59,919 nt of DNA from a virus, in UHGV virus genome UHGV-0342645. One strand, written 5' to 3'. The notes beneath the pieces are model-generated. The model did no database searches. It was not told the origin of the DNA and saw only the letters and a program-made list of their open reading frames with translations. A program made the translations under genes and the position numbers. Each line of letters begins with the position of its first letter. Position 1 is the first letter of the stretch. Of this stretch, positions 1-39,403 are shown one piece after another.

Positions 1-29
1 ACACTAATAGCTACAGAACTCTTTTTCAT
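1..29 (-). CDS. 5' end of head scaffolding gene, split by the window boundary (continues at 59919 if circular)
   Basis: ATG at 29-27 preceded by GGAG RBS; reading off the left edge and re-entering at 59919 is in frame, with no stop, with the scaffold ORF at 59876. Confidence 0.4.
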
Positions 30-124
30 TTCTTATCTCCGTTGTCACCCGTGTGACGTTTTTGGGGCTGAGCCGTCCCAGCCCCGTGTTCGTTAATATA
101 AACCAATCAATTTGGAAGTTGCAA

Positions 125-1621
125 CTATTCTTTATCGGAAGCGTCGTCTTCCTTAGGATCTTTGTTTACTTGCTGCTCTGCGTTTAAATCAGCTTTAGCA
201 TCATCGGGCAGAGGCCACTTCTTAAGCTCTTCTTCAAGAATTGCCATTTCTTCTTCAAAGCTTAGTGTGGTCAAGCCCTGATCAACAAGCCAGCCATGAA
301 TAGACTGCAAGCTGATCGGAGCCTTAAGGTTGCGTGCAGTAATAATTTGAACAAAGTCCTGACCGTTAAACATGCTCTTGGTAAATTCAAGATTAGGCTT
401 AACCACAACCTTCTCTGGATCAGCACCCATCCATTTAGCACAAACCTTCAGCAAGTTTTCCAAACCTGCCGCACCAGTATACGCAATTCGAATCAGGCTA
501 GCGGTACGCGCAGCAATACGCGTTTTCATAGCTTCGCCCGATTCCTGCGTGCTCTTGGTGTTGTTTACCATCTGCCCGGCTTTAATCTGAGCTTCTTGCT
601 TATCCGCTGCTAATGCGAGGCGTTGCTCGGACAAACCGTCACCGCTAACGCCTACATATTTAGCGTCACCACCAATAGCAACGTTAATGACCGCTCCAGG
701 ACCGATGCGCTGAGGGGCTTTATCTCCATTCTCCCCAGTACCGCCAACAACAACTAATGTGTCCTGCCCCTGCATATGCAGACTCTGACGGTAATCAGCA
801 TCACTTCGGTACATGCTTAGGCAGATGTTAGCTAGCCCCAATAATGGTGGCGCTTCCGGTGCTGGGGTAATATCTGTCGTATTAACAAACTGGAAAGGTA
901 TTTCGTCCAGCGTGTTACCTTTATAATAAGGAGCAATCATTTGCCCTTCATCATAATTGGTATTGTTGATAAACAAATGCTGGGAGTAGACCGCCCCACC
1001 TGCAACTTCATCTGTGTCCATCGGGCCTAATTGCAGGACGCGATAACGCTTCTCTTCTTTCCAGTCAAACTGATTGACACGTACAGGACCGCTTTCATCC
1101 AGAACAACCATGTTCAAGTTGATATTGCCTAATTCATCTTTACCATCATCCCAGTTGATAATGGATAAAGCATCATAAACGCTAATATAAGGTCTGTTAT
1201 TTACATCCTCACCTTTCGGCAAGTCCAGCAGCAGGCCCAAACGTCCATTTTTTAACTGCATTTCGTTGATGCGACGTAGCAGAGCAATAATGTCTTCACC
1301 GTCCGCAGTACACAGCTCCCGCATGTACTCCATTTCAGGAGGAAGCTGGATTGTAGGAGGCTTCTGGTGCAACAGACCTAAATTGTTTGTGACCGCACTT
1401 GAATAATCGTCAGGGAAGTTAGCACGCAGACGATAAGCAAGCCAACGTTGAAAGCCCAAATCATTAGGATTATTCATCCCATCAATAATCATGGAAGCTA
1501 AAGGTGGTAGATATTTAACACCTTCTTCCTTAATTTTATCTTCACCCTCATAGCAGTCGTTGCACTTAACCCATGCATCCTTCCACTTGTCATATAGCGG
1601 GTGAGTTGCATCAATACCCAT
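125..1621 (-). CDS. portal protein
   Basis: 498-aa ORF immediately downstream of the large terminase in a terS-terL-portal order; size typical of portals; no motif-level confirmation. Confidence 0.6.
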   Translation of the reverse strand: MGIDATHPLYDKWKDAWVKCNDCYEGEDKIKEEGVKYLPPLASMIIDGMNNPNDLGFQRWLAYRLRANFPDDYSSAVTNNLGLLHQKPPTIQLPPEMEYMRELCTADGEDIIALLRRINEMQLKNGRLGLLLDLPKGEDVNNRPYISVYDALSIINWDDGKDELGNINLNMVVLDESGPVRVNQFDWKEEKRYRVLQLGPMDTDEVAGGAVYSQHLFINNTNYDEGQMIAPYYKGNTLDEIPFQFVNTTDITPAPEAPPLLGLANICLSMYRSDADYRQSLHMQGQDTLVVVGGTGENGDKAPQRIGPGAVINVAIGGDAKYVGVSGDGLSEQRLALAADKQEAQIKAGQMVNNTKSTQESGEAMKTRIAARTASLIRIAYTGAAGLENLLKVCAKWMGADPEKVVVKPNLEFTKSMFNGQDFVQIITARNLKAPISLQSIHGWLVDQGLTTLSFEEEMAILEEELKKWPLPDDAKADLNAEQQVNKDPKEDDASDKE

Positions 1622-1632
1622 ATACCCTCCAG

Positions 1633-3192
1633 TTAAATACCGATAGTTTTACCAACACCTGTATAAACAGCTTGATCCAGAACCATATAACGTACTTCAT
1701 CCCCCATATGGTCTTCGCATTCCGTATCAACGTCGTCCTGATCTACTTCATCGCGCGGAAGACTTGGAACCAGCTCAAAGAAATAATTGCAATTATCGAA
1801 AACATACATTGCTGGATTTTCACGTGGTCCCGGCAAAGGTTTACCGTTTGCATCTTCCCGCAACGCGGCTTTAAGAAACTCACGCATTTTCTGCCATCCG
1901 CGTTTACGCGACCCAGCAGATTTATCACTTCTCTTCCAATGGATGCCGTTATACAGCTTGCCGTTGAGACGGATTTTCTTCGCCATTGTTGCAGCGGTGG
2001 AGTTATTGTTCTCCAGATCCCAAATAGAATTATCCGCAGGTCCAGGAACTACACGGTCGTGTATGCCCCAGGCCAATTCCCGCTCCAGTATACCGCTTGC
2101 AATCTCTGAGTCCAGCAAATGTAGACCTTCGTTTGTTTTACCGTTAGTGCCGTACCATTCGTTAATACGGAACAAGTCACCGCGTACAGTAGAGAATGTA
2201 GTACCGTCCTCACGTACAACATCCGAACCGTCACTAATAGCCCACCAGCCAACGGAGAATGGTTTTGAAGAACCCCAGTCGAAAGAACGTGTAATCTTCC
2301 AGCTTGATGGGATTGGGAATGGGCGTATTTTATGAACAGTGCTACGCCACAGATCATCGAACATACCGCCGGAGGTGATATCCCAGCTACCGCCTAACCA
2401 TGCAGCTCGTTTGTTCGGATCTGTGATGGACATAAGCTCTGCAATATATTTCGGGCTCAGGTTTTTGTTCTCGCGGTAAGATCCGAAGATATGGCATTGC
2501 GTCGTAACCACATCTTCCTCTTTCTGCGTCCGCGGGTTAAACACTCGCGTAGTTTTCCTGAGTATCTTACCCATCGGTGCAGCATCAATGAAGCGTTTCT
2601 TAACCCAGTTATGCCCCGCACCAAACGGGTTACTGGTAGCAAATACTTCCAGAGGAATGTCTGGTAAATATGTGACAGTACCGTCCGGATCGATAATTGG
2701 ATTATCTTCGGGTAGGAAGGATGAACGGTTACAGGACATCATTGCTTCAAACAAACGCCCGTCCGGATACTTTGTTAATTCGTTCCATCCGATAAACGGG
2801 TATTCGTGACCATGATAAGACCAATAATCCTTTTCTTTGCAAGCAACACGGAACAGCAATTCTTCCCCAGTGGGCCAAACCCATTTATAATCAGACTTCG
2901 AGCTAAGGAATTTAGCACCATCTTTAAATTCAGGGAACCAACGCTGTGATTTGGTTACAAGGTCATCAAGGTTTTTATATTCACGATCGAATATAATACC
3001 CTTCCAGAATTTACCGTACCCTACGCCAACATTCTTACGGAAACGCATAAGCTGGCAGTCCGTCTTTCCAGGACCGCGAGTACCGTGGTATAAAATGATA
3101 TCAGCAGGACAGGATAGAGCGAGTGTCTGTGAACCTGGATGTGGCTTCCAGACTACTCGCGGCATGTTATCAGGTTGTCGGTTTAGCTCCAT
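1633..3192 (-). CDS. terminase large subunit
   Basis: 519 aa; N-terminal P-loop-like GTRGPGKT; overlaps the small-subunit gene; followed by portal. Confidence 0.75.
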   Translation of the reverse strand: MELNRQPDNMPRVVWKPHPGSQTLALSCPADIILYHGTRGPGKTDCQLMRFRKNVGVGYGKFWKGIIFDREYKNLDDLVTKSQRWFPEFKDGAKFLSSKSDYKWVWPTGEELLFRVACKEKDYWSYHGHEYPFIGWNELTKYPDGRLFEAMMSCNRSSFLPEDNPIIDPDGTVTYLPDIPLEVFATSNPFGAGHNWVKKRFIDAAPMGKILRKTTRVFNPRTQKEEDVVTTQCHIFGSYRENKNLSPKYIAELMSITDPNKRAAWLGGSWDITSGGMFDDLWRSTVHKIRPFPIPSSWKITRSFDWGSSKPFSVGWWAISDGSDVVREDGTTFSTVRGDLFRINEWYGTNGKTNEGLHLLDSEIASGILERELAWGIHDRVVPGPADNSIWDLENNNSTAATMAKKIRLNGKLYNGIHWKRSDKSAGSRKRGWQKMREFLKAALREDANGKPLPGPRENPAMYVFDNCNYFFELVPSLPRDEVDQDDVDTECEDHMGDEVRYMVLDQAVYTGVGKTIGI

Positions 3193-3727
3193 CTTCAGTC
3201 TCTTTAACTAGTCGTTGTTGAGACTCGGATGCAGTTTTTTCCCATTCGTCAATATTTGCTACAGCAGGGACTATCATTACGCCGCCTCTGTTAGTAACAT
3301 CAATTTTAGCCTTCTTGGGAGCATCCAAATCATAAATTTGTGCAAGCTTGCCCAATGCGGCTACTCTAGCAGCTTGAGAAGATCCCGGTCCTGTATAATG
3401 AGCTTCACGTTTTAATGCTTCAATGATATGCTGACGCTCTAGGTCTGCTTCAATGTTAGCTTGCTCAGAAGTACGTTGAACACGGGATCTTTCAATCTCC
3501 TTGAGCTTCCATCGAACGTAACAGTCCGTGGCAAAGCGTTGGCCAAGCTCCTGTGCAAACATAGCATTGAACCCGCATCTCATGCAAGCGTTAGTCCAAT
3601 TGTAGTCGAACATATACTCAGCAACAACTTTGTCACGTATTGCCATCTCGTCAGCGGACAAGCTATTTGCATACTGGATATAGTTCGTCCAGTCACGATC
3701 ATATTGCTCTTGACTTGCCCCGTTCAT
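3170..3727 (-). CDS. terminase small subunit (putative)
   Basis: 185-aa ORF directly upstream of and overlapping terL; positional call. Confidence 0.45.
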   Translation of the reverse strand: MNGASQEQYDRDWTNYIQYANSLSADEMAIRDKVVAEYMFDYNWTNACMRCGFNAMFAQELGQRFATDCYVRWKLKEIERSRVQRTSEQANIEADLERQHIIEALKREAHYTGPGSSQAARVAALGKLAQIYDLDAPKKAKIDVTNRGGVMIVPAVANIDEWEKTASESQQRLVKETEDGAKPTT

Positions 3728-3747
3728 GGAAGCTCCCCTTCTTATTG

Positions 3748-4053
3748 CTATTTAGGCTGAATATAATTGCTTGATCCTACAAAATCAAGCGAAACATTTT
3801 CAGCTTCATAGCGTATGATTTCCTTAACCCTTAGCTTACATTCGGTCAGAGCAGTTTCTGTATCCTGTAAACGTCGGATAATATCTCTTGTGTAAACCAA
3901 AGGAATTTTCTCAACTTCCCGACATTCCACCAGTAGATGCGCGGGTAGTCTTACCTTCACTATCTGTGGAGCTGGGGGAGGTTGAGTCTGCGTCGAGCAA
4001 CCTGCGCAAATCATCAGGAATACGCTCGTTAAGATAAGCTTTGACGTCAGCAT
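3748..4053 (-). CDS. o-spanin (Rz1-like outer-membrane lipoprotein)
   Basis: Internal start MLTSKLILTSVFLMICAGCS gives signal peptide plus lipobox Cys; Pro-rich mature part; starts inside the i-spanin gene in another frame and extends past it. Confidence 0.55.
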   Translation of the reverse strand: MLTSKLILTSVFLMICAGCSTQTQPPPAPQIVKVRLPAHLLVECREVEKIPLVYTRDIIRRLQDTETALTECKLRVKEIIRYEAENVSLDFVGSSNYIQPK

Positions 4054-8964: not shown

Positions 8965-9302
8965 TGACGAACAGTTTCTAACATAGATTTATAATCGTCA
9001 TCCCAATCATAATTCTCAACATCTTTTTGAAGTTTGGCGATCATTTCTTCAAGGCTGTTAGCTGGTAAGTAGCTTTCACCAAATGCAGCAAGACGTTTGT
9101 GATAATCGGGGCTTTGTTCATCCACCCAGCCAAATTCAGCTTCAAATGAATCACAACCCGAGCACGATCCATAAGAACCTTCACAAACCCCCAATACACC
9201 ATCTTTTCTTATCAGGGCAAGCCATTCACCCTGATAACAACCAAACTCAACAAAATCTAATACTTCGCATCCAGCAGCTTCTAATGCTAATTGATAAGAC
9301 AT
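8946..9302 (-). CDS. hypothetical protein
   Basis: 118 aa, Cys-containing, acidic. Confidence 0.4.
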   Translation of the reverse strand: MSYQLALEAAGCEVLDFVEFGCYQGEWLALIRKDGVLGVCEGSYGSCSGCDSFEAEFGWVDEQSPDYHKRLAAFGESYLPANSLEEMIAKLQKDVENYDWDDDYKSMLETVRQWQKNI

Positions 9303-9670
9303 TCTTCTTGCTCCTCTACATATTTAGTGACACATTTTTGAAAATTAAGAACGATATTTTTCTCTTTTACGGAGTGAAATTTAACACGTTCCGGGCAGAT
9401 AATCCAGCCTTCAAAACGTTGAGTAGCGTCATTCCATGCAGCACGACCATAATAGCCGCGATATGGACCTAATCGCATTGCATTTACCTCTGTAACCACA
9501 TTGCTGGAGGTGCTGGGTGTAGCGCTTACACTGGAGTCGCACATAATACCTCCTTGATGCTCTAAAAACAGGTGTGAATTGATAGAAATTGCTTGCATCC
9601 GCTTAAAGATGGTAGCTATGGAGCAGCTACAAGACGAATTATACGTTGACGACTCAGAATTTACTACCAA
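9287..9670 (-). CDS. hypothetical protein
   Basis: 127-aa ORF overlapping neighbours by a few codons. Confidence 0.35.
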   Translation of the reverse strand: MVVNSESSTYNSSCSCSIATIFKRMQAISINSHLFLEHQGGIMCDSSVSATPSTSSNVVTEVNAMRLGPYRGYYGRAAWNDATQRFEGWIICPERVKFHSVKEKNIVLNFQKCVTKYVEEQEECLIN

Positions 9671-9878
9671 AATCCATATATTTGACGGTTATAGTGAATA
9701 TGCCATGTTTAATATTGTCCGTGAGATACAAATTACTATCCAATTCCTCTTTAGTGTACAGATAAGCATTACTTACTTCATCTGTAAGTCCTTGCATCGG
9801 AGCAAGCAGCCACCAACCCCTCCAGTCAAACATAGGCGATTTATCAGACACTCTTAATATATAACGTTTATTATTCAA
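9654..9878 (-). CDS. hypothetical protein
   Basis: 74-aa ORF; track start is a TTG, true start uncertain. Confidence 0.3.
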   Translation of the reverse strand: MNNKRYILRVSDKSPMFDWRGWWLLAPMQGLTDEVSNAYLYTKEELDSNLYLTDNIKHGIFTITVKYMDFGSKF

Positions 9879-9898
9879 ACCAATACCTTGTCACCAGA

Positions 9899-9994
9899 CT
9901 AATTTCGCATTGCTAGTACAACAATTAGCACCATTAACATTGCTCCAGCTACCATACCGAGCACAAATACACTAGCTAATCCGATTAAACTCAT
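9899..9994 (-). CDS. small hydrophobic peptide (31 aa)
   Basis: GGAGAT RBS 6 nt before ATG; MSLIGLASVFVLGMVAGAMLMVLIVVLAMRN is a single TM helix; below the ORF-track size cutoff. Confidence 0.3.
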   Translation of the reverse strand: MSLIGLASVFVLGMVAGAMLMVLIVVLAMRN

Positions 9995-10199
9995 TTCAAT
10001 ATCTCCGATCAGTTTTATATCATCCATATTTTAACACTAAACCCAGTATATAGAAAGCGTGAAATACTCAAGGGTCCGTTTTTAAGGTAGGTGGGGTCAT
10101 GGATGTAGGTGGATAGTAAAGTGATGGGTGAGATTTAGACAAGGACTTACTATCAGGATGGACAGGGCACGCCCCAGCGCTCCAAGTACCTGGAAAAGG

Positions 10200-10320
10200 A
10201 TGGGTCGGGTTGCGCGGCTGGGCCTGCGTGGGTCGGTGTGCGCTGTGCGAGCTGTGCGCCACGCTGTGCGCCTGTTTCACCCGAGCTAATGCATTACCAT
10301 TGCCTATATGCATTAGCTCG
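10200..10320. repeat. GC-rich GCTGTGCG direct repeats followed by a 13-bp perfect palindrome
   Basis: gtgtgcgctgtgcgagctgtgcgccacgctgtgcg then CGAGCTAATGCAT-N13-ATGCATTAGCTCG (10282..10320) in a non-coding stretch. Confidence 0.6.
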
Positions 10321-10340
10321 CTAGCGTGGCGCTGTGTGTG

Positions 10341-10499
10341 TTATAGCGCCGCTCCTCCTTTGCGGGCTTTACGTGCTGCATAACGCTGTTCCCTTACTTC
10401 GTTGTATTGGCGATCCCATTTAGCATCCATTACTTCGGTTACGATCAGTGCTACCAGTGGACTTACTACTGCGATAACCATCATAATTAAAATTAACAT
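10341..10499 (-). CDS. small membrane protein (52 aa)
   Basis: GGAG RBS; MLILIMMVIAVVSPLVALIVTEV hydrophobic N-terminus and basic C-terminus; not in ORF track (<60 aa). Confidence 0.35.
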   Translation of the reverse strand: MLILIMMVIAVVSPLVALIVTEVMDAKWDRQYNEVREQRYAARKARKGGAAL

Positions 10500-10548
10500 T
10501 TTGTTTACTCCGTTATTTGGTTGATGTATGTAGTATCCACCAGACCGA

Positions 10549-10731
10549 TCACGATGTCCAGATGTTTTGGTCGATTAATTTTGCATAGAAGTCGCGCCCT
10601 GTCTGCATGGCTTGGGACCAGTTGGTTTCTTCCCATTCCATGCGCATAACCTGCAATAATAACGCGTGTTGTGCGCGGGTAAGTTTGTTTTTACTGGACA
10701 TAATATACCTCTGCATAGTTAAGTTAGCCAT
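10549..10731 (-). CDS. hypothetical small protein
   Basis: 60-aa ORF (or 50 aa from internal ATG with GAGG RBS); first gene downstream of the candidate leftward promoter. Confidence 0.35.
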   Translation of the reverse strand: MANLTMQRYIMSSKNKLTRAQHALLLQVMRMEWEETNWSQAMQTGRDFYAKLIDQNIWTS

Positions 10732-10782
10732 TTTGTGTACCCCTTTAAGTTAAGTTTTACTGTATTACCTTGCTATGTGTAT

Positions 10783-10811
10783 ATAGTAATGCTAGACCTA
10801 AAACTTGCCAA
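10783..10811 (-). promoter_or_regulatory. candidate sigma70-type promoter for the leftward early operon
   Basis: Minus strand TTGGCA-17 nt-TACTAT followed by an AT-rich leader to the ORF at 10731. Confidence 0.35.
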
Positions 10812-10948
10812 GTGTTTTTGCACTTTTTATAAAAATATTTTGGCACCTTTTATGCCTGCGTGTGCGTGCCCGCGCGTATAGTGCAATTCGTGTGATGTTA
10901 GTTAGGCCGTTTGTGCTAAACATGCAGGGCAAGCATAATTTTCACTAG

Positions 10949-11206
10949 ATGCAAAACAATATCAAAATAGCACTTTTGGCCTATTCAATATCACGATGCA
11001 AGGCTATTATTACTTCAACAAAGCAATACTGCTTAACCACATTAGGTAGCATCATGGAATTCAAATTAGTGGGACTCGAGTCCGGTAAAATAGCTGGTTA
11101 TGTATCTGCTCCAAGCTGGGAAGAGGCCGAAATCTTCTTAATGGGTCAGTTCGATATGTACATTAGCGAAATTTACAAAGAATACGATTTAGTCCAAATT
11201 AAGTGA
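10949..11206 (+). CDS. hypothetical protein
   Basis: 85-aa ORF; start uncertain (internal MEFKLVGLE possible). Confidence 0.25.
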   Translation: MQNNIKIALLAYSISRCKAIITSTKQYCLTTLGSIMEFKLVGLESGKIAGYVSAPSWEEAEIFLMGQFDMYISEIYKEYDLVQIK

Positions 11207-11274
11207 TTTATATCTTGCCTAGTTGATACGACTGGGCAATAATAAGTCAACTTAAACAAAACGAGGATTACATC

Positions 11275-11523
11275 ATGGCTACTTCTATCGTCACCAAATT
11301 TTTGGCACCAACTAACACCAAAGGCGCACGCATTGCAGTTAAAGGTTTTGGCAAGCGCAAAGTCTATAGCTGGGACTATGCACTCGACGTAACGCTTAAC
11401 CATAAAGCAGCGGTACAGCAGTTCCTCAAAGCGTTTAACGCCGAAAACGACACCGACTATGGCATCGTTGCTTTCGCAAGCATGGATATCGCAACCGCCG
11501 ATTTCGTAGCAATCGTGCAGTAA
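11275..11523 (+). CDS. hypothetical protein
   Basis: 82-aa ORF with GAGGA-like RBS. Confidence 0.4.
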   Translation: MATSIVTKFLAPTNTKGARIAVKGFGKRKVYSWDYALDVTLNHKAAVQQFLKAFNAENDTDYGIVAFASMDIATADFVAIVQ

Positions 11524-11596
11524 GTTTTCTTATACACTGCTCATCATTACGGTGGGCAGTAATAAGCAAACTAACATTAACGAAAGGAGATATACC

Positions 11597-12169
11597 ATGT
11601 CTAAAGTAACTCACCGCGAACAGGACAAAATGCGCTACACCATGAAAACGAATGCACGCCGCGCCCTTAAGACCCGTTGGGGCCAGGTTGCACGCGATGC
11701 ACACGAACAGTTAATCCATCAGGACGATATCGGTTTTTACATCGTCGAAAAGGAAGTCCTTCAGGTTCTGCGCGACCATGAAAAAGCTCAAAAGCCGGAG
11801 CAGAAAGTCCCAGCACCGACCGCCGCGCCAGCTGCCCGCGTCTCGGTACTGCGCCCGATGGTAAATCCGGAAATCGTCAAAAGCTGCCTCGAAGCTCTGG
11901 AGCAGGAGGAAGAGAAAGATATGAAACACGCAAAAGCTGCCGCACCAAAACAGGATGCAAAAGCTGCTCGCTGTGATTTCAAAAATGGCGCTCGCAAGCC
12001 GCTCAAAGGAAAAACTGCCGAAGTGTGGGCAATGGGTGACAAACTTCTGAAGGAACTGGGCCGCACGCCGGAGCTGAAAGAAATGAAAGCTGCAATGCCT
12101 TCTTACAACGGGACAACTGTTGCCATTCAGTTCTACGCCTGGCGCAAATATAACGACCTGGACGCATAA
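11597..12169 (+). CDS. hypothetical protein
   Basis: Internal ATG (MSKVTHREQ) preceded by AAGGAG RBS; 190 aa, basic, Ala/Lys-rich centre. Confidence 0.45.
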   Translation: MSKVTHREQDKMRYTMKTNARRALKTRWGQVARDAHEQLIHQDDIGFYIVEKEVLQVLRDHEKAQKPEQKVPAPTAAPAARVSVLRPMVNPEIVKSCLEALEQEEEKDMKHAKAAAPKQDAKAARCDFKNGARKPLKGKTAEVWAMGDKLLKELGRTPELKEMKAAMPSYNGTTVAIQFYAWRKYNDLDA

Positions 12170-12209
12170 TCTATAACCACACTGTTCACTGACGGCTTCT
12201 GCGGGAGCC

Positions 12210-12545
12210 CTATTTAAGATAAAGATTTTCAATCATATCGTTTTTCGGGTCGTTAATATACTTCCCGAAGACAGCTTTCTTACCCTGCGGCCCGTGGAAC
12301 ATTTCGTACACAATACGGGTCCGTAACACTTTACGGTTTTCCCCGCCACAAATTGGAGCAAGACTAATCCTAGCTTGCAGATGAGCAGCGCATATATCCT
12401 TAGCTTCGTCACCTTTAGTTATGCCATATTTTTTAAAAGACTTCTTCCAGAATAAATCCCCGTCGCGGTATTCAAAATATTTATTCCAATTAGGTTCCTT
12501 CTTCCACCAGTGCTTTTCATAATCCCATTCAAGGCTCATAGTCAC
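12210..12545 (-). CDS. HNH/NUMOD-like homing-endonuclease relic (degenerate)
   Basis: C-terminal RTRIVYEMFHGPQGKKAVFGKYINDPKNDMIENLYL follows the HNH_3 pattern (HRLV..F.GNP...VNHIDGNK.NN..NL) but lacks the catalytic His; opposite strand to flanking genes. Confidence 0.3.
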   Translation of the reverse strand: MTMSLEWDYEKHWWKKEPNWNKYFEYRDGDLFWKKSFKKYGITKGDEAKDICAAHLQARISLAPICGGENRKVLRTRIVYEMFHGPQGKKAVFGKYINDPKNDMIENLYLK

Positions 12546-12754
12546 TCCTCTTGATGATTTAATTTGCGCGCGCTACGTAAGACAGCCTCCTTAGACTTGT
12601 TATCGCGGCTGCGGCTACCCGTGTTACCGGACCGCTGCAATAACTCCTCTCTGCCTTAACGCAGATTATAGCTTGATATACCTTCCGATCACAATAGTTC
12701 AATAAATTTGCCTCAAAAGCACTTGACTTCTCGTTTTTGATCTGCATCCGTTCA

Positions 12755-13230
12755 GGTTTATGAAAGTTTATAGAGTTTATATTGTGAAGTATAAACAATC
12801 ACATAATACCAATAGGTACTATATACATTAATAATAAATCCTTATTTTATATATATTTATAGTTATTATTAATATTAGTTTAATTTGGTTTATTTTAGTT
12901 AGTTGACTGAAAGTTTATAAGTTTATAGGGGTATACTCCCAACTTTTTTCAGATAATTAATAGTATAGTAGTGATAGTGGTTTTTGCACGTTTTCACTAC
13001 TACTACTAATTATTTGTTTGAAAAGGGGGTAATAAGGGGAAACCGTAAACTTATAAACTTTGCTCTGTGTAAAAATAAAAAATTAGTGAATAGTGAGATA
13101 GTGGTTCATAGTGGCAAACTTTTACAAAGCGAGTAACGACGCACTATACACATTTTGCCCACTATGTACGCCACTAAGCACTATATTAAAACAATCCTTG
13201 CAAATAGCTAATGTCTGTTTTATAGTGGCT
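12755..13230. repeat. AT-rich iteron-like repeat region (GTTTATA and ATAGTG/CACTAT motifs)
   Basis: GTTTATA copies at ~12756, 12766, 12775, tandem AGTTTATAAGTTTATA at 12912-12927, inverted copy at 13047-13059; at least 8 ATAGTGG/CACTAT-type motifs between 12960 and 13230; no credible ORF. Confidence 0.6.
13198..13226 (+). promoter_or_regulatory. sigma70-type promoter for the rightward operon
   Basis: TTGCAA-17 nt-TATAGT, about 28 nt upstream of AGGAGG RBS and the ATG at 13254. Confidence 0.55.
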
Positions 13231-16841: not shown

Positions 16842-17068
16842 TGGTAGTTAAGATAGTAATCATGGATGTCGTACCTTGCCATAATTTCGGATGCTTCCGC
16901 CGCACTTTCCGCTTCTTCATAAGCTTGCTCAGCGTCGTCATAAGTACCGTAATACATCCAACCTTCACCCATTGGACGGATATATGCTTCAAATTTGCCA
17001 GTACGCGGGTGACGTACAACTTTATAATCTGCGCCCATTGTGCTATATACTTTATTCAGCATGACCAT
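16838..17068 (-). CDS. hypothetical acidic protein
   Basis: 76-aa ORF with GGAGGA RBS; lone minus-strand gene inside the plus arm. Confidence 0.45.
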   Translation of the reverse strand: MVMLNKVYSTMGADYKVVRHPRTGKFEAYIRPMGEGWMYYGTYDDAEQAYEEAESAAEASEIMARYDIHDYYLNYQ

Positions 17069-27827: not shown

Positions 27828-28628
27828 ATGAGCAACATTGAAGACAAAAAAGCTGCCGCCGCAGCCGCCGCTGCCGCTGCAAAATCTGCTAAACCTGCAA
27901 AGAAAGAAGCTACTGTGAATGATGCAGAAGCTAAGAAAGCCGCTGCCGCTGAAGCTGCACGCGTAGCAAAAGAGAAAAAAGAAGCAGAGAAAAAAGCTGC
28001 CGCTGAAAAGAAACAAGCTGAAATCCGCACTGAAGCGGAAAACAAATTTACCGCTCTTTCCCAGGCAGTTGAAACCGTGAAGTTTGCTTTATCTGGTATT
28101 ACCGATGAAAGCACTGTTGAACAGATTACGGAAGCAGAATCTAAGGGTTCTGAACAGCTGAAGCATTTAAAGAATGCTCTGAAAGAGCTGAAAGCAGTTG
28201 TTAAAAAATCCAAAGGTGAAGATCTGTCCGGTGCAGTGACTGCTGCTCAGAGCATGGTAGACGAACTGGATTCGTCTATTAAAGGCTTCAAAGACAAGAT
28301 CCGTGCTGCAAAACAGGCAGAAAAAGAAGCGGAAAAAGCACGCGCTAAAGAGCTCCGCGAGAAAGAAAAAGAAGCTAATCGTATGCCGGAACAGAACGGT
28401 GTTCGTCGTCCGCAACCGGAAACTTCCTGCGGTCGTGCCTGGGCTCTGATGGACCAGATTAGCGCTACGCTGGGTCAGCCTGCTCCGATCTCTTATGTTC
28501 TGAATCTGGCTGGTCGCCAGGGGCTGAACGAAGATACCGTTAAAACCCAGTATGCACGCTGGAAGAAATTTAATGGTGTAACTGGTCGCGTACCTGTACC
28601 AGTACCGGAAGCCCTGAACGGCTTGTAA
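27828..28628 (+). CDS. Ala/Lys-rich histone-H1-like protein
   Basis: GGAG RBS; N-terminal KKAAAAAAAAAAKSAKPAKK and KEKKEAEKKAAAEKK tracts; globular C-terminal region. Confidence 0.5.
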   Translation: MSNIEDKKAAAAAAAAAAKSAKPAKKEATVNDAEAKKAAAAEAARVAKEKKEAEKKAAAEKKQAEIRTEAENKFTALSQAVETVKFALSGITDESTVEQITEAESKGSEQLKHLKNALKELKAVVKKSKGEDLSGAVTAAQSMVDELDSSIKGFKDKIRAAKQAEKEAEKARAKELREKEKEANRMPEQNGVRRPQPETSCGRAWALMDQISATLGQPAPISYVLNLAGRQGLNEDTVKTQYARWKKFNGVTGRVPVPVPEALNGL

Positions 28629-38926: not shown

Positions 38927-39125
38927 GTATGTGGTTATGTATTTTGTAATTGGCGCAATTGTTGCAGCAATGACTTATTGCTTCTGTTGGGATAACTATG
39001 ATTATGCAATAGCTCATAAGAAACGTTGGGAGAAGATTGTAAGTCTTCTATGTATACTCGCTTGCTGGCCGGTCACTATTATTGCGACTGCTTATGATCA
39101 ATACATGTACAGGAGACGCAAATGA
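38919..39125 (+). CDS. small membrane protein (2 TM)
   Basis: MSEYVVMYFVIGAIVAAMTYCF and LLCILACWPVTIIATAY hydrophobic segments. Confidence 0.4.
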   Translation: MSEYVVMYFVIGAIVAAMTYCFCWDNYDYAIAHKKRWEKIVSLLCILACWPVTIIATAYDQYMYRRRK

Positions 39126-39403
39126 TGGAATATCTATTAGTTGTCGTTGCGCTATTTCTAATCATTGTTGTTATAATGACCGGAGATAGTAATGAGAAGG
39201 GCTTTACAGCAATGAGCAGGGCGTTATTACGCGCCCTTGCTGTTGCACTGCTTGGGACAAGTTTTGCTATGGCGTTTGGGGTTGTGGAGATCCCTAGCAC
39301 CTATTACGGTTTTGTTAAAGTTCAACATCAACTCACTTATGCTACCGTCGTCGGATTGGGTGCTGTAACACTTGCAATCCTGTCAGCTTTTCATAAGCGT
39401 TAA
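39122..39403 (+). CDS. membrane protein
   Basis: 93 aa with three hydrophobic segments; last gene of the plus arm. Confidence 0.4.
   Translation: MMEYLLVVVALFLIIVVIMTGDSNEKGFTAMSRALLRALAVALLGTSFAMAFGVVEIPSTYYGFVKVQHQLTYATVVGLGAVTLAILSAFHKR

Follow-up and report, generated by a model that had tools for sequence, protein, structure and literature searches.

A candidate terminase cleavage site at the inner boundary of a predicted long terminal repeat in Seuratvirus phages

Introduction

The virion DNA of some phages carries a direct terminal repeat (DTR). T7-like phages process their concatemer junctions and terminal repeat, which is 160 bp long in T7, with the short repeat arrays SRL and SRR and by way of a hairpin intermediate. 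In T5, the terminal repeat of ~10 kb holds the pre-early genes, and a region rich in repeats and palindromes, the "injection stop," lies at its inner edge. To our knowledge, two-step DNA entry has never been reported in Queuovirinae.

Within this subfamily, run-off sequencing of virion DNA has placed the major terminase cut of the Nonagvirus phage 9g at nt 28243 (Tsai et al., 2017; PMC5567051). The same study reported read pile-ups at nt 28243, 33–50% cut templates and two GC-rich direct repeats of 21 bp just before the cut, and inferred a terminal repeat of ~3.0–3.2 kb (PMC5567051). These data were taken by Tsai et al. as a pac site followed by headful packaging, and not as a fixed terminal repeat (PMC5567051).

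Here we analyzed the 59,919-bp genome of a Seuratvirus (Queuovirinae) coliphage, a complete genome that has been arbitrarily opened and that we refer to as the window (the whole stretch of DNA analyzed). Its nearest relatives are SD04, phiG7, Seurat, and CAjan. The initial annotation of the window, made from its letters and open reading frames, singled out a non-coding block with direct repeats and a perfect palindrome, and listed a packaging signal, an origin signal, an RNA processing site and a small RNA among its possible roles. Through bioinformatic and comparative genomic analyses we find it likely that this block is the terminase recognition and cleavage region at the inner boundary of a long DTR. 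Such a terminus site would be a known kind of element that is newly proposed for Seuratvirus, a genus for which our literature search found no paper on termini, transcription or origin.

Results

The block and its genomic context

The window has two divergent gene arms and no terminal duplication. The leftward (minus-strand) operon starts at ~10731, behind a sigma-70-like promoter (TTGGCA-17-TACTAT, 10811–10783) with an A/T-rich upstream element, and contains, in this order, small early genes, the holin and endolysin genes, those of the small (TerS) and large (TerL) terminase subunits, the portal gene and then the structural genes. The replication genes lie on the rightward arm (10949–38163), and the phage encodes a primase-polymerase/helicase with an NrS-1-like HBD domain and a DUF3987 domain. 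The block is located ~400 nt into the leftward operon and, in agreement with its earlier placement downstream of a small minus-strand membrane-protein ORF, begins directly past the stop codon (10341–10343) of a 52 amino acid membrane protein. In the relatives, varied and unrelated upstream genes terminate at the right edge of the block or at most 6 nt from it.

Our analysis showed that the features read from the sequence by the initial annotation are real. The block (10084–10347) has a GC content of 56%, versus 44% (0.444) for the whole window, with 93 G and 56 C, and GC reaches 0.58–0.60 across 10100–10399. As the initial annotation stated, the stretch is unlike the rest of the genome. The octamer GCTGTGCG occurs exactly at 10242, 10251 and 10263, with just two further copies in the other 59.9 kb (both strands searched), and one-mismatch copies are found at 10235 (GGTGTGCG) and 10331 (GCTGTGTG), so that the count of four or more such repeats is fair when understood as three exact and two degenerate copies. 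The palindrome is likewise exact, with CGAGCTAATGCAT at 10282–10294 and ATGCATTAGCTCG at 10308–10320 separated by 13 nt. It is the sole inverted repeat of at least 13 bp with a spacer of at most 30 nt in the window, and when the genome was shuffled locally 100 times, an inverted repeat of such size arose in 3 cases. The module on the left of the block, described below, has an extreme excess of C over G that a packaging role leaves unexplained.

Several simple candidates for this sequence were rejected. On neither strand is the 13-bp hairpin followed by a run of T/U, as previously pointed out, and the block is not a canonical intrinsic (Rho-independent) terminator; a terminator scan found just a weak 5-bp stem at 10322–10334 with a GT-rich tail. 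A G-quadruplex was discarded because the four GGG tracts are not retained in VogelGryff or STP-SP5, and a Chi-like site because none of the three true Chi octamers of the genome falls in the block.

Distribution and allelic variation of the block

Conservation in relatives, which had been proposed as a check on the locus, proved to be general: the block is present in every Seuratvirus examined, at one and the same position in all of the ~36 records found, with sharp edges and mosaic flanking genes. The conserved unit extends from ~10041 to 10347 and is therefore wider than the repeats and the palindrome. Scans of IMG/VR and metagenomes with conserved words returned ~200 loci, four of them real and all from close Seuratvirus relatives. 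A host or plasmid origin was rejected, as blastn gave no hit to 5,426 E. coli genomes or to the plasmids of PLSDB.

Two alleles of the block were identified. Type A (~264 nt) is found, among others, in the window, CAjan and Seurat, and Type B (~400 nt) in phages that include SHIN8, Skure, GottfriedDienst, ECP2304, and Dru_SM1. The alleles have in common a left module (window 10084–10168) and a right module (10287–10344) and differ in the middle, which in Type B contains many hairpins and no GCTGTGCG array. Diverged copies of Type A are present in Salmonella phage STP-SP5 and Hafnia phage yong3, where identity is concentrated in the islands GGTRGGTGGGG, TACTATCAGRATGGACA, AAGTACC, GGGTCGGGT, and GCTGTGC. 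The octamer array is invariant in the aligned Type A relatives, partly retained in STP-SP5 and yong3, and replaced in Type B.

A search for the palindrome in related phages showed that most relatives keep 10 perfectly paired bp and that the full 13-bp pairing is private to the window genome. The hairpin loop CATTACCATTACC is conserved among relatives. Compensatory change within the block is limited to this hairpin. In STP-SP5, the hairpin GAGCTAGCCC...GGGCTAGCTC differs by two compensatory double changes by count and a third by eye, and in yong3 its place is taken by a different hairpin. The repeats and the palindrome are not the best-conserved parts of the locus; the invariant 16-mer TACTATCAGGATGGAC lies outside the core on which the initial annotation had focused. 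This 16-mer occurs once in the window and shows R/Y changes only across Type A, Type B, STP-SP5, and yong3.

In close relatives, nucleotide diversity (pi) is 0.043 in the block core versus 0.059 at the third codon positions of the neighboring 88 amino acid gene, and the stretch 10084–10147 is highly variable (pi of 0.175, with indels). Because the core is barely less diverse than these third codon positions, strong purifying selection is not demonstrable for most of the block, and the idea that the block is ultra-conserved was rejected.

The terminase is more uniform than the block. TerS is at least 98.9% identical across the E. coli-type Seuratvirus records, among them SD04 and CSP1, in Type A and Type B phages alike, and 91 and 78% identical in STP-SP5 and yong3, respectively. 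TerS alleles do not correlate with block type, since TerS is nearly identical in all. Taking into account that Type B phages have the same TerS and no GCTGTGCG array, the array is not essential for recognition. For the same reason, the sequence read by TerS must lie in the shared modules that flank the cut proposed below.

Terminal repeats of relatives end within the block

A few Queuovirinae records are 3–4 kb longer than the others, and we compared the ends of these records. The Type B Seuratvirus phage ECP2304 has an exact DTR of 3,695 bp (positions 1–3695 match 59896–63590 at 100%), and yong3 has an exact DTR of 3,424 bp (positions 1–3424 match 59400–62823 at 100%). Both repeats stop at one homologous nucleotide in the block, which reads ...GAGGGCCCTT/ATCCATCCTGATAGTA (CCCTT/) in ECP2304 and ...GGGTTGGGAT/GTCCATCCTGATAGTA (GGGAT/) in yong3, where the slash marks the end of the repeat. 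This shared inner end is located immediately 5' of (G/A)TCCATCCTGATAGTA and adjoins the invariant motif TACTATCAGGATGGA(C/T); in ECP2304 it falls two bases from the start of the conserved left module. The outer ends of the two repeats are also at a homologous spot, within ~3–10 nt. ECP2304 and yong3 are distinct phages, with distinct hosts and submitters, and their repeats differ in length by 271 bp. That two different phages have matching inner and outer ends argues for sequence-specific ends and against an assembly overlap. The records that retain repeats are 62.8–64.1 kb long, and both copies are kept in 2 of the 33 Seuratvirus records. Our literature search found no paper on the ends of the ECP2304 and yong3 records (OR880647 and OM868075).

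The Nonagvirus phage HdK1 provides a link between such records and physical ends. It has an exact DTR of 3,367 bp ending in ...CGCCGCGGGGCGGCTC, which corresponds exactly to nt 28243 of 9g. Since the end of the HdK1 repeat is the mapped 9g cut, the repeat boundaries in records of this type reproduce an experimentally mapped physical end. A boundary of this physical-end type is present at the homologous nucleotide in two relatives of the window, inside the block. In ECP2304, yong3, and HdK1 alike, the sequence that lies to one side of the site recurs at the opposite end of the chromosome.

The 9g cut is syntenic with the window at ~10–11 kb. In tblastn comparisons, gp36/37 of 9g match window 11275–12169, and on the opposite side gp42, the endolysin, the holin, and TerS keep the same order. 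A search for homology between the block and the 9g cut region by nhmmer and Smith-Waterman gave scores within the shuffle null, and a 13-mer common to both (AGGTGGATAGTAA) was not significant.

Predicted terminus in the window genome

The terminus was transferred to the window by homology from one Type B phage (ECP2304) and one distant relative (yong3). At the homologous site the window reads, in the sense of the operon (minus strand), ...GGGGCGTGCCCT/GTCCATCCTGATAGTAAG (GTGCCCT/), and we infer a cut at the corresponding position in this phage (Table 1). The outer boundary of the predicted DTR, 12989/12990, is derived from the yong3 end AAC/GTGCAA; the ECP2304 start maps to ~12977. This predicted boundary falls in a very AT-rich zone (12700–13000). 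With a repeat of ~2.8 kb, the virion DNA is predicted to be ~62.7 kb long. A terminus at 10163/10164 would place the repeats and palindrome of the initial annotation 78–157 bp inside the end of the virion DNA.

Table 1. Coordinates of features of the predicted terminus region and terminase genes in the 59,919-bp window.
Feature	Coordinates	Strand	Basis or position
TerL, presumed nuclease	1633–3192	-	Pfam Terminase_6N, E = 5.7e-6
TerS, presumed site reader	3170–3727	-	45% identity to 9g TerS
Unique-side module with GGTAGGTGGGGTC (10086–10098) and GTAGGTGGATAG (10105–10116)	10041–10147	+	C/G of 3.8 in leftward-operon sense
Invariant 16-nt TACTATCAGGATGGAC, candidate terminase cleavage/recognition determinant	10148–10163	+	Adjoins predicted cut, unique side
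Predicted terminus, inner boundary of DTR (unique DNA up to 10163, repeat from 10164)	10163/10164	.	Homology to ECP2304 and yong3 ends
Predicted DTR of ~2.8 kb: rest of block, first small early genes, divergent early promoter region (~10740–10950), first rightward genes	10164–12989	.	Homology
DTR-side motifs: AAGTACC (10184–10190) and direct repeats GGATGGGTC (10198) and GCGTGGGTC (10226), 28 bp apart	10184–10234	+	Repeat search
Octamer array: GGTGTGCG, then three GCTGTGCG, spaced by 9–12 bp	10235–10270	+	72–107 bp inside predicted DNA end
Palindrome/hairpin with 13-bp arms and 13-nt loop	10282–10320	.	119–157 bp inside predicted DNA end
Right edge of block: CGCTGTGTG, then TTA stop (TAA on minus strand, 10341–10343) of the 52 amino acid membrane ORF (10341–10499)	10330–10343	+	

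The motif adjacent to the predicted cut, TACTATCAGRATRGA(Y), is universal in the genus and shared by Type A, Type B, STP-SP5, and yong3. In operon sense, GACCC(C)AYC is found at −42 to −49 from the cut, inside the repeat, in all 11 genomes compared. Most relatives have a second copy, GACCCCACC, outside the repeat at +63 to +78, and of the seven Type A-lineage genomes compared, five have a third at about −71. GC-rich direct repeats lie before the cut on its packaged side, a feature shared with 9g. Finally, the 85–95% homology between Type A and Type B ends at window 10162–10170, which coincides with the predicted cut; an allele homology that stops at the cut is expected if DNA ends act as recombination breakpoints.

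Alternative explanations for the block

Part of the evidence could also be accommodated by a regulatory role in transcription. The block may act as a Rho-dependent terminator or attenuator of the leftward immediate-early transcript, with ~300 nt of untranslated RNA after the stop codon at 10341 that would contain a 3'-end-protecting hairpin, regular YC-rich repeats (CGCACAGC) and a C-rich tract for Rho loading; the downstream genes would then rely on a second promoter or on read-through. In operon sense, 10041–10170 is the most C-rich and G-poor 100-nt stretch of the genome (C/G of 3.3–3.8, where the genome median is 0.84 and the 99th percentile 1.72), and C/G above 1.4 continues to 10280. An untranslated C-rich, G-poor tract of at least ~80 nt, as expected of a rut site, is therefore present; the bias is retained where the sequence is most variable, the block begins right at a stop codon in every relative, and its hairpin has no U-tract. 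In addition, homing-endonuclease and other genes insert just downstream of the block, ahead of a conserved promoter-like region (9646–9673). However, a rut site leaves unexplained both the invariant 16-mer and the two terminal repeats that end exactly there, the 9g cut occurs without a comparable C-rich tract, and the CGCACAGC array is replaced by hairpins in Type B. Our literature search found no Seuratvirus transcriptome. As the main account of the block we regard Rho-dependent termination as unlikely; as a function that coexists with a packaging role it is plausible. A replication origin, one of the options listed by the initial annotation, would consist of a rightward promoter (TTGACG-N16-CAAAAT) leading through an AT-rich stretch into a G-rich, R-loop-prone region with iteron-like repeats, at the divergence point of the two gene arms and of the cumulative GC skew. 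The skew minimum does lie at ~10–13 kb, the promoter-like element is kept even in yong3 and STP-SP5, short direct repeats and an AT-rich flank exist, and the phage codes for its own primase-polymerase/helicase. Nevertheless, 0.4–0.6 kb of genes separate this sole promoter-like element from the block in the window, SD04, phiG7, WildeMaa, SA80RD, Skure, and Dru_SM1, and the tolerance of such insertions in seven genomes makes a single origin unit unlikely. Moreover, the skew minimum is confounded by transcription direction, and the repeats, spaced by 9–12 bp, are not helically phased and are absent from Type B. Taken together, we consider an origin at this position very unlikely.

The evidence for a product encoded by the block itself, whether RNA or protein, was also weighed. 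A structured non-coding RNA or an RNA processing site on either strand would agree with the compensatory changes that maintain the hairpin in STP-SP5 and its replacement by a different hairpin in yong3, and Type B folds better than shuffled sequence (z of −2.6 and −4.1 for the plus and minus strand, respectively). In Type A, on the other hand, the folding z-scores are weak (−0.6 and −1.4), and the RNAalifold covariation term is positive, that is, unfavorable, on both strands, with STP-SP5 and yong3 breaking most of the predicted pairs. Among the Type B hairpins, SHIN8 and Dru_SM1 carry one in opposite orientations and several phages have a broken version of another. A plus-strand RNA would have no terminator. 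Searches with Rfam 15 found no match at gathering score in the window and none within 10040–10350 at E ≤ 10 (9800–10700 scanned), and ARAGORN found no tRNA or tmRNA. Two Rfam matches at chance level flank the block, at 9963–10032 and 10677–10695. The small RNA and RNA processing options of the initial annotation are thus very improbable readings of the locus. Even less probable, and to us hardly credible, is a small protein gene of the kind that the annotations of CAjan, Seurat, WildeMaa, VogelGryff, and SeppeHuegi place over the block. Both strands do have stop-free frames of 46–100 codons, and a hypothetical protein is called in several GenBank records, but long open frames are expected in GC-rich sequence and the called ORFs vary in length and frame between records. 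The 39 variable columns among 15 relatives are split 14/13/12 by phase, no three-base periodicity is detected in any frame, and the frame is shifted between relatives by 1-nt indels and a 31-nt insertion, all of which supports the earlier description of the block as non-coding.

Discussion

Of the roles suggested by the initial annotation, the packaging signal is the one that our analysis favors, since an inner DTR boundary maps inside the block in two relatives; the origin, small RNA, and RNA processing options received little support. According to this packaging-site explanation, the terminase would recognize and cut concatemeric DNA at the block, generating one end of the virion chromosome. 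The cut would fall between 10163 and 10164, with TACTATCAGGATGGAC directly on the unique side, and the last ~160 bp of the packaged end would carry GGATGGGTC, GCGTGGGTC, the three copies of GCTGTGCG and the palindrome. The direct repeats that flank the cut are candidate TerS binding sites, and the palindrome may have a role in end processing. With regard to the packaging mode, the homologous outer ends of yong3 and ECP2304 lead us tentatively to favor two specific cuts (T7- or T5-like) over a precise first cut followed by headful packaging.

A cleavage site at this position would locate the true chromosome ends of the Seuratvirus phages, a group that includes several phages of the BASEL collection and the deazaguanine model phage CAjan, and nearly all of whose GenBank records are arbitrarily opened at terS with the repeat collapsed. 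It would also mean that the earliest genes are present in two copies per virion, that several "hypothetical proteins" annotated over the block are spurious calls, and that the sharp mosaic breakpoint between the block alleles is explained. In addition, it would offer a defined cis-acting site for genome engineering, packaging, and transduction assays, and would extend the single experimentally mapped Queuovirinae terminus, that of 9g, to a second genus with a non-homologous site.

A broader and more speculative scenario, which we consider quite unlikely in its entirety, would assign several functions to the region. The DTR would be a T5-like, self-contained "first-in" module, the first DNA to enter the cell, with divergent early promoters and mosaic immediate-early genes that are probably involved in anti-defense. 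The block at its inner edge would then act as the terminase cut site, as a stop that, by loading Rho, keeps immediate-early transcription within the repeat, and as a hotspot of DNA-end recombination that drives the swapping of Type A and Type B at the cut.

Comparison with known systems

The closest described system is that of 9g and HdK1, which belong to the same subfamily and have homologous TerS (45% identity) and TerL proteins. In both genera the site, mapped or predicted, occupies a syntenic position where the operon leading to the lysis and terminase genes starts, and a terminal repeat has its cut at the inner edge, with a repeat length of 3.4–3.7 kb in two Seuratvirus records and of ~2.8 kb predicted in the window. 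GC-rich direct repeats are located just inside the packaged end, and a homing-endonuclease gene lies beside the cut in some members. However, the 9g/HdK1 site has no detectable sequence similarity to the block, and it was mapped experimentally in 9g, whereas the site described here is predicted by homology. The 9g/HdK1 cut is placed upstream of the first gene of the operon; in Seuratvirus, by contrast, the promoter and the predicted cut are separated by one to three small early genes, which hence fall inside the repeat. The repeats also differ, being 21-mers within ~35 bp of the cut in 9g and lying 35–107 bp away, together with a palindrome, in the window.

Similarities with better-studied coliphages are of a more general kind. 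Like nutR/tR1 of lambda, the block is placed after the first early gene or genes and combines a hairpin that has no U-tract with flanking RNA rich in C and poor in G; in contrast to that system, neither a boxA- or boxB-like sequence nor an N-like protein was identified here, and a likeness to nutR/tR1 would leave the genome end unaccounted for. With T7, the locus would share an exact DTR with sequence-specific ends, and short direct-repeat arrays and a palindrome near the repeat boundary, although the T7 repeat is 160 bp long versus ~3 kb, the terminase and repeat sequences are unrelated, and the palindrome lies outside the repeat in T7 and inside it here. With respect to T5, whose repeat is longer (~10 kb) and has no sequence relationship to the block, the resemblance would lie in a kilobase-scale repeat that carries the earliest genes and in a non-coding inner boundary that is rich in repeats and palindromes.

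Variation and ORF Calls in the Conserved Block

Relatives differ within the GC-rich block in several ways. One 28-nt hairpin of the Type B block, CAGGCCGTACGAGTTAACGTACAGCCTG in SHIN8, is exactly reverse-complemented in Dru_SM1, as though inverted by a palindrome-mediated template switch. In WildeMaa, a run of ~14 G replaces ~36 nt of the unique-side module seen in other phages, SLUR75 carries GGTGGGGGGT with two additional G, and SD04 and OddieOddie show 1-nt homopolymer indels; these differences reflect either real slippage or sequencing errors. In addition, five GenBank records annotate "hypothetical proteins" over the block, whose length and frame vary between records. These ORF calls are probably spurious and lie in GC-rich non-coding DNA.

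Coordinates of features in the window and in records of related phages (L-numbers).
Feature	Record	Coordinates	Remark
Type B hairpin	SHIN8 (L015)	~1761-1788	
Type B hairpin	Dru_SM1 (L023)	~1770-1797	
G run	WildeMaa (L005)	~1550-1570	
Block-spanning ORF	CAjan (L001)	2452-2730	
Block-spanning ORF	Seurat (L003)	2350-2730	
Block-spanning ORF	WildeMaa (L005)	1543-1758	
Block-spanning ORF	VogelGryff (L010)	1441-1731	
Block-spanning ORF	SeppeHuegi (L014)	1585-1761	
HNH gene	WildeMaa (L005)	982-1455	
HNH gene	L002	2022-2504	
HNH gene	L008	747-1220	
HNH gene	L020	982-1455	
HNH gene	Dru_SM1 (L023)	941-1414	
HNH gene	HdK1 (L224), Nonagvirus	3536-4015	169 nt past terminus
TTGACG-N16-CAAAAT, promoter-like	Window	9646-9673	plus, rightward
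Perfect TATAAT, promoter-like	Window	~9651-9656	minus, leftward
Iteron array	CAjan (L001)	3650-3760	
Iteron array	GottfriedDienst (L021)	2930-3040	
Iteron array	9g (L024)	3451-3524	
C-rich stretch	Window	16871-16990	
C-rich stretch	Window	39100-39290	

Features Near the Predicted Genome Ends

HNH homing-endonuclease genes were located within ~0.1-0.3 kb of the predicted terminus, on its unique side, in five Seuratvirus genomes, and one is also found in HdK1 of the sister genus. Such genes may insert preferentially at DNA ends. At the other end of the predicted terminal repeat, window positions 12700-13000 are extremely AT-rich (GC 0.23); the predicted outer boundary (12989|12990) falls within this zone, as does an inverted repeat of 11 bp at 12827/12863. 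The ECP2304 record (OR880647.1) has no annotated features in its first 2.8 kb (1-2781) and last 1.3 kb (62287-63590), both of which are portions of the two terminal-repeat copies, and the yong3 record (OM868075.1) is labelled "circular" despite a 3,424-bp terminal duplication.

Candidate Terminators, Promoters and Iterons

The two other stretches that are C-rich and G-poor in the transcript sense (C/G about 2.0-2.3), one after the primase-helicase gene and one where the two gene arms converge, may be additional terminator regions.

Upstream of the 88-aa gene (9287-9553) there are conserved back-to-back promoter-like elements, still recognisable in STP-SP5 and yong3. The pair lies ~45 nt from the block in most relatives; in the window, two inserted ORFs (9654-9878 and 9899-10027) stand between the pair and the block.

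Within the genus, the leftward early promoter region (window 10715-10960, alignment A4) occurs in no fewer than two unrelated allelic forms, one shared by the window, CAjan and yong3 and another by Seurat, WildeMaa, VogelGryff and SHIN8. Only the former contains the motif CGCGCGGGC(G/A)C(A)CAC, which precedes the first gene by ~130 nt. The GTGCCGGAAATACCAGG-type iteron (~21 bp) is missing from the window, Seurat, WildeMaa, SA80RD, STP-SP5 and yong3. CAjan, GottfriedDienst and 9g each have 3-4 copies of it in their divergent early-promoter region. It is common to both genera and could serve as a regulator or origin array.
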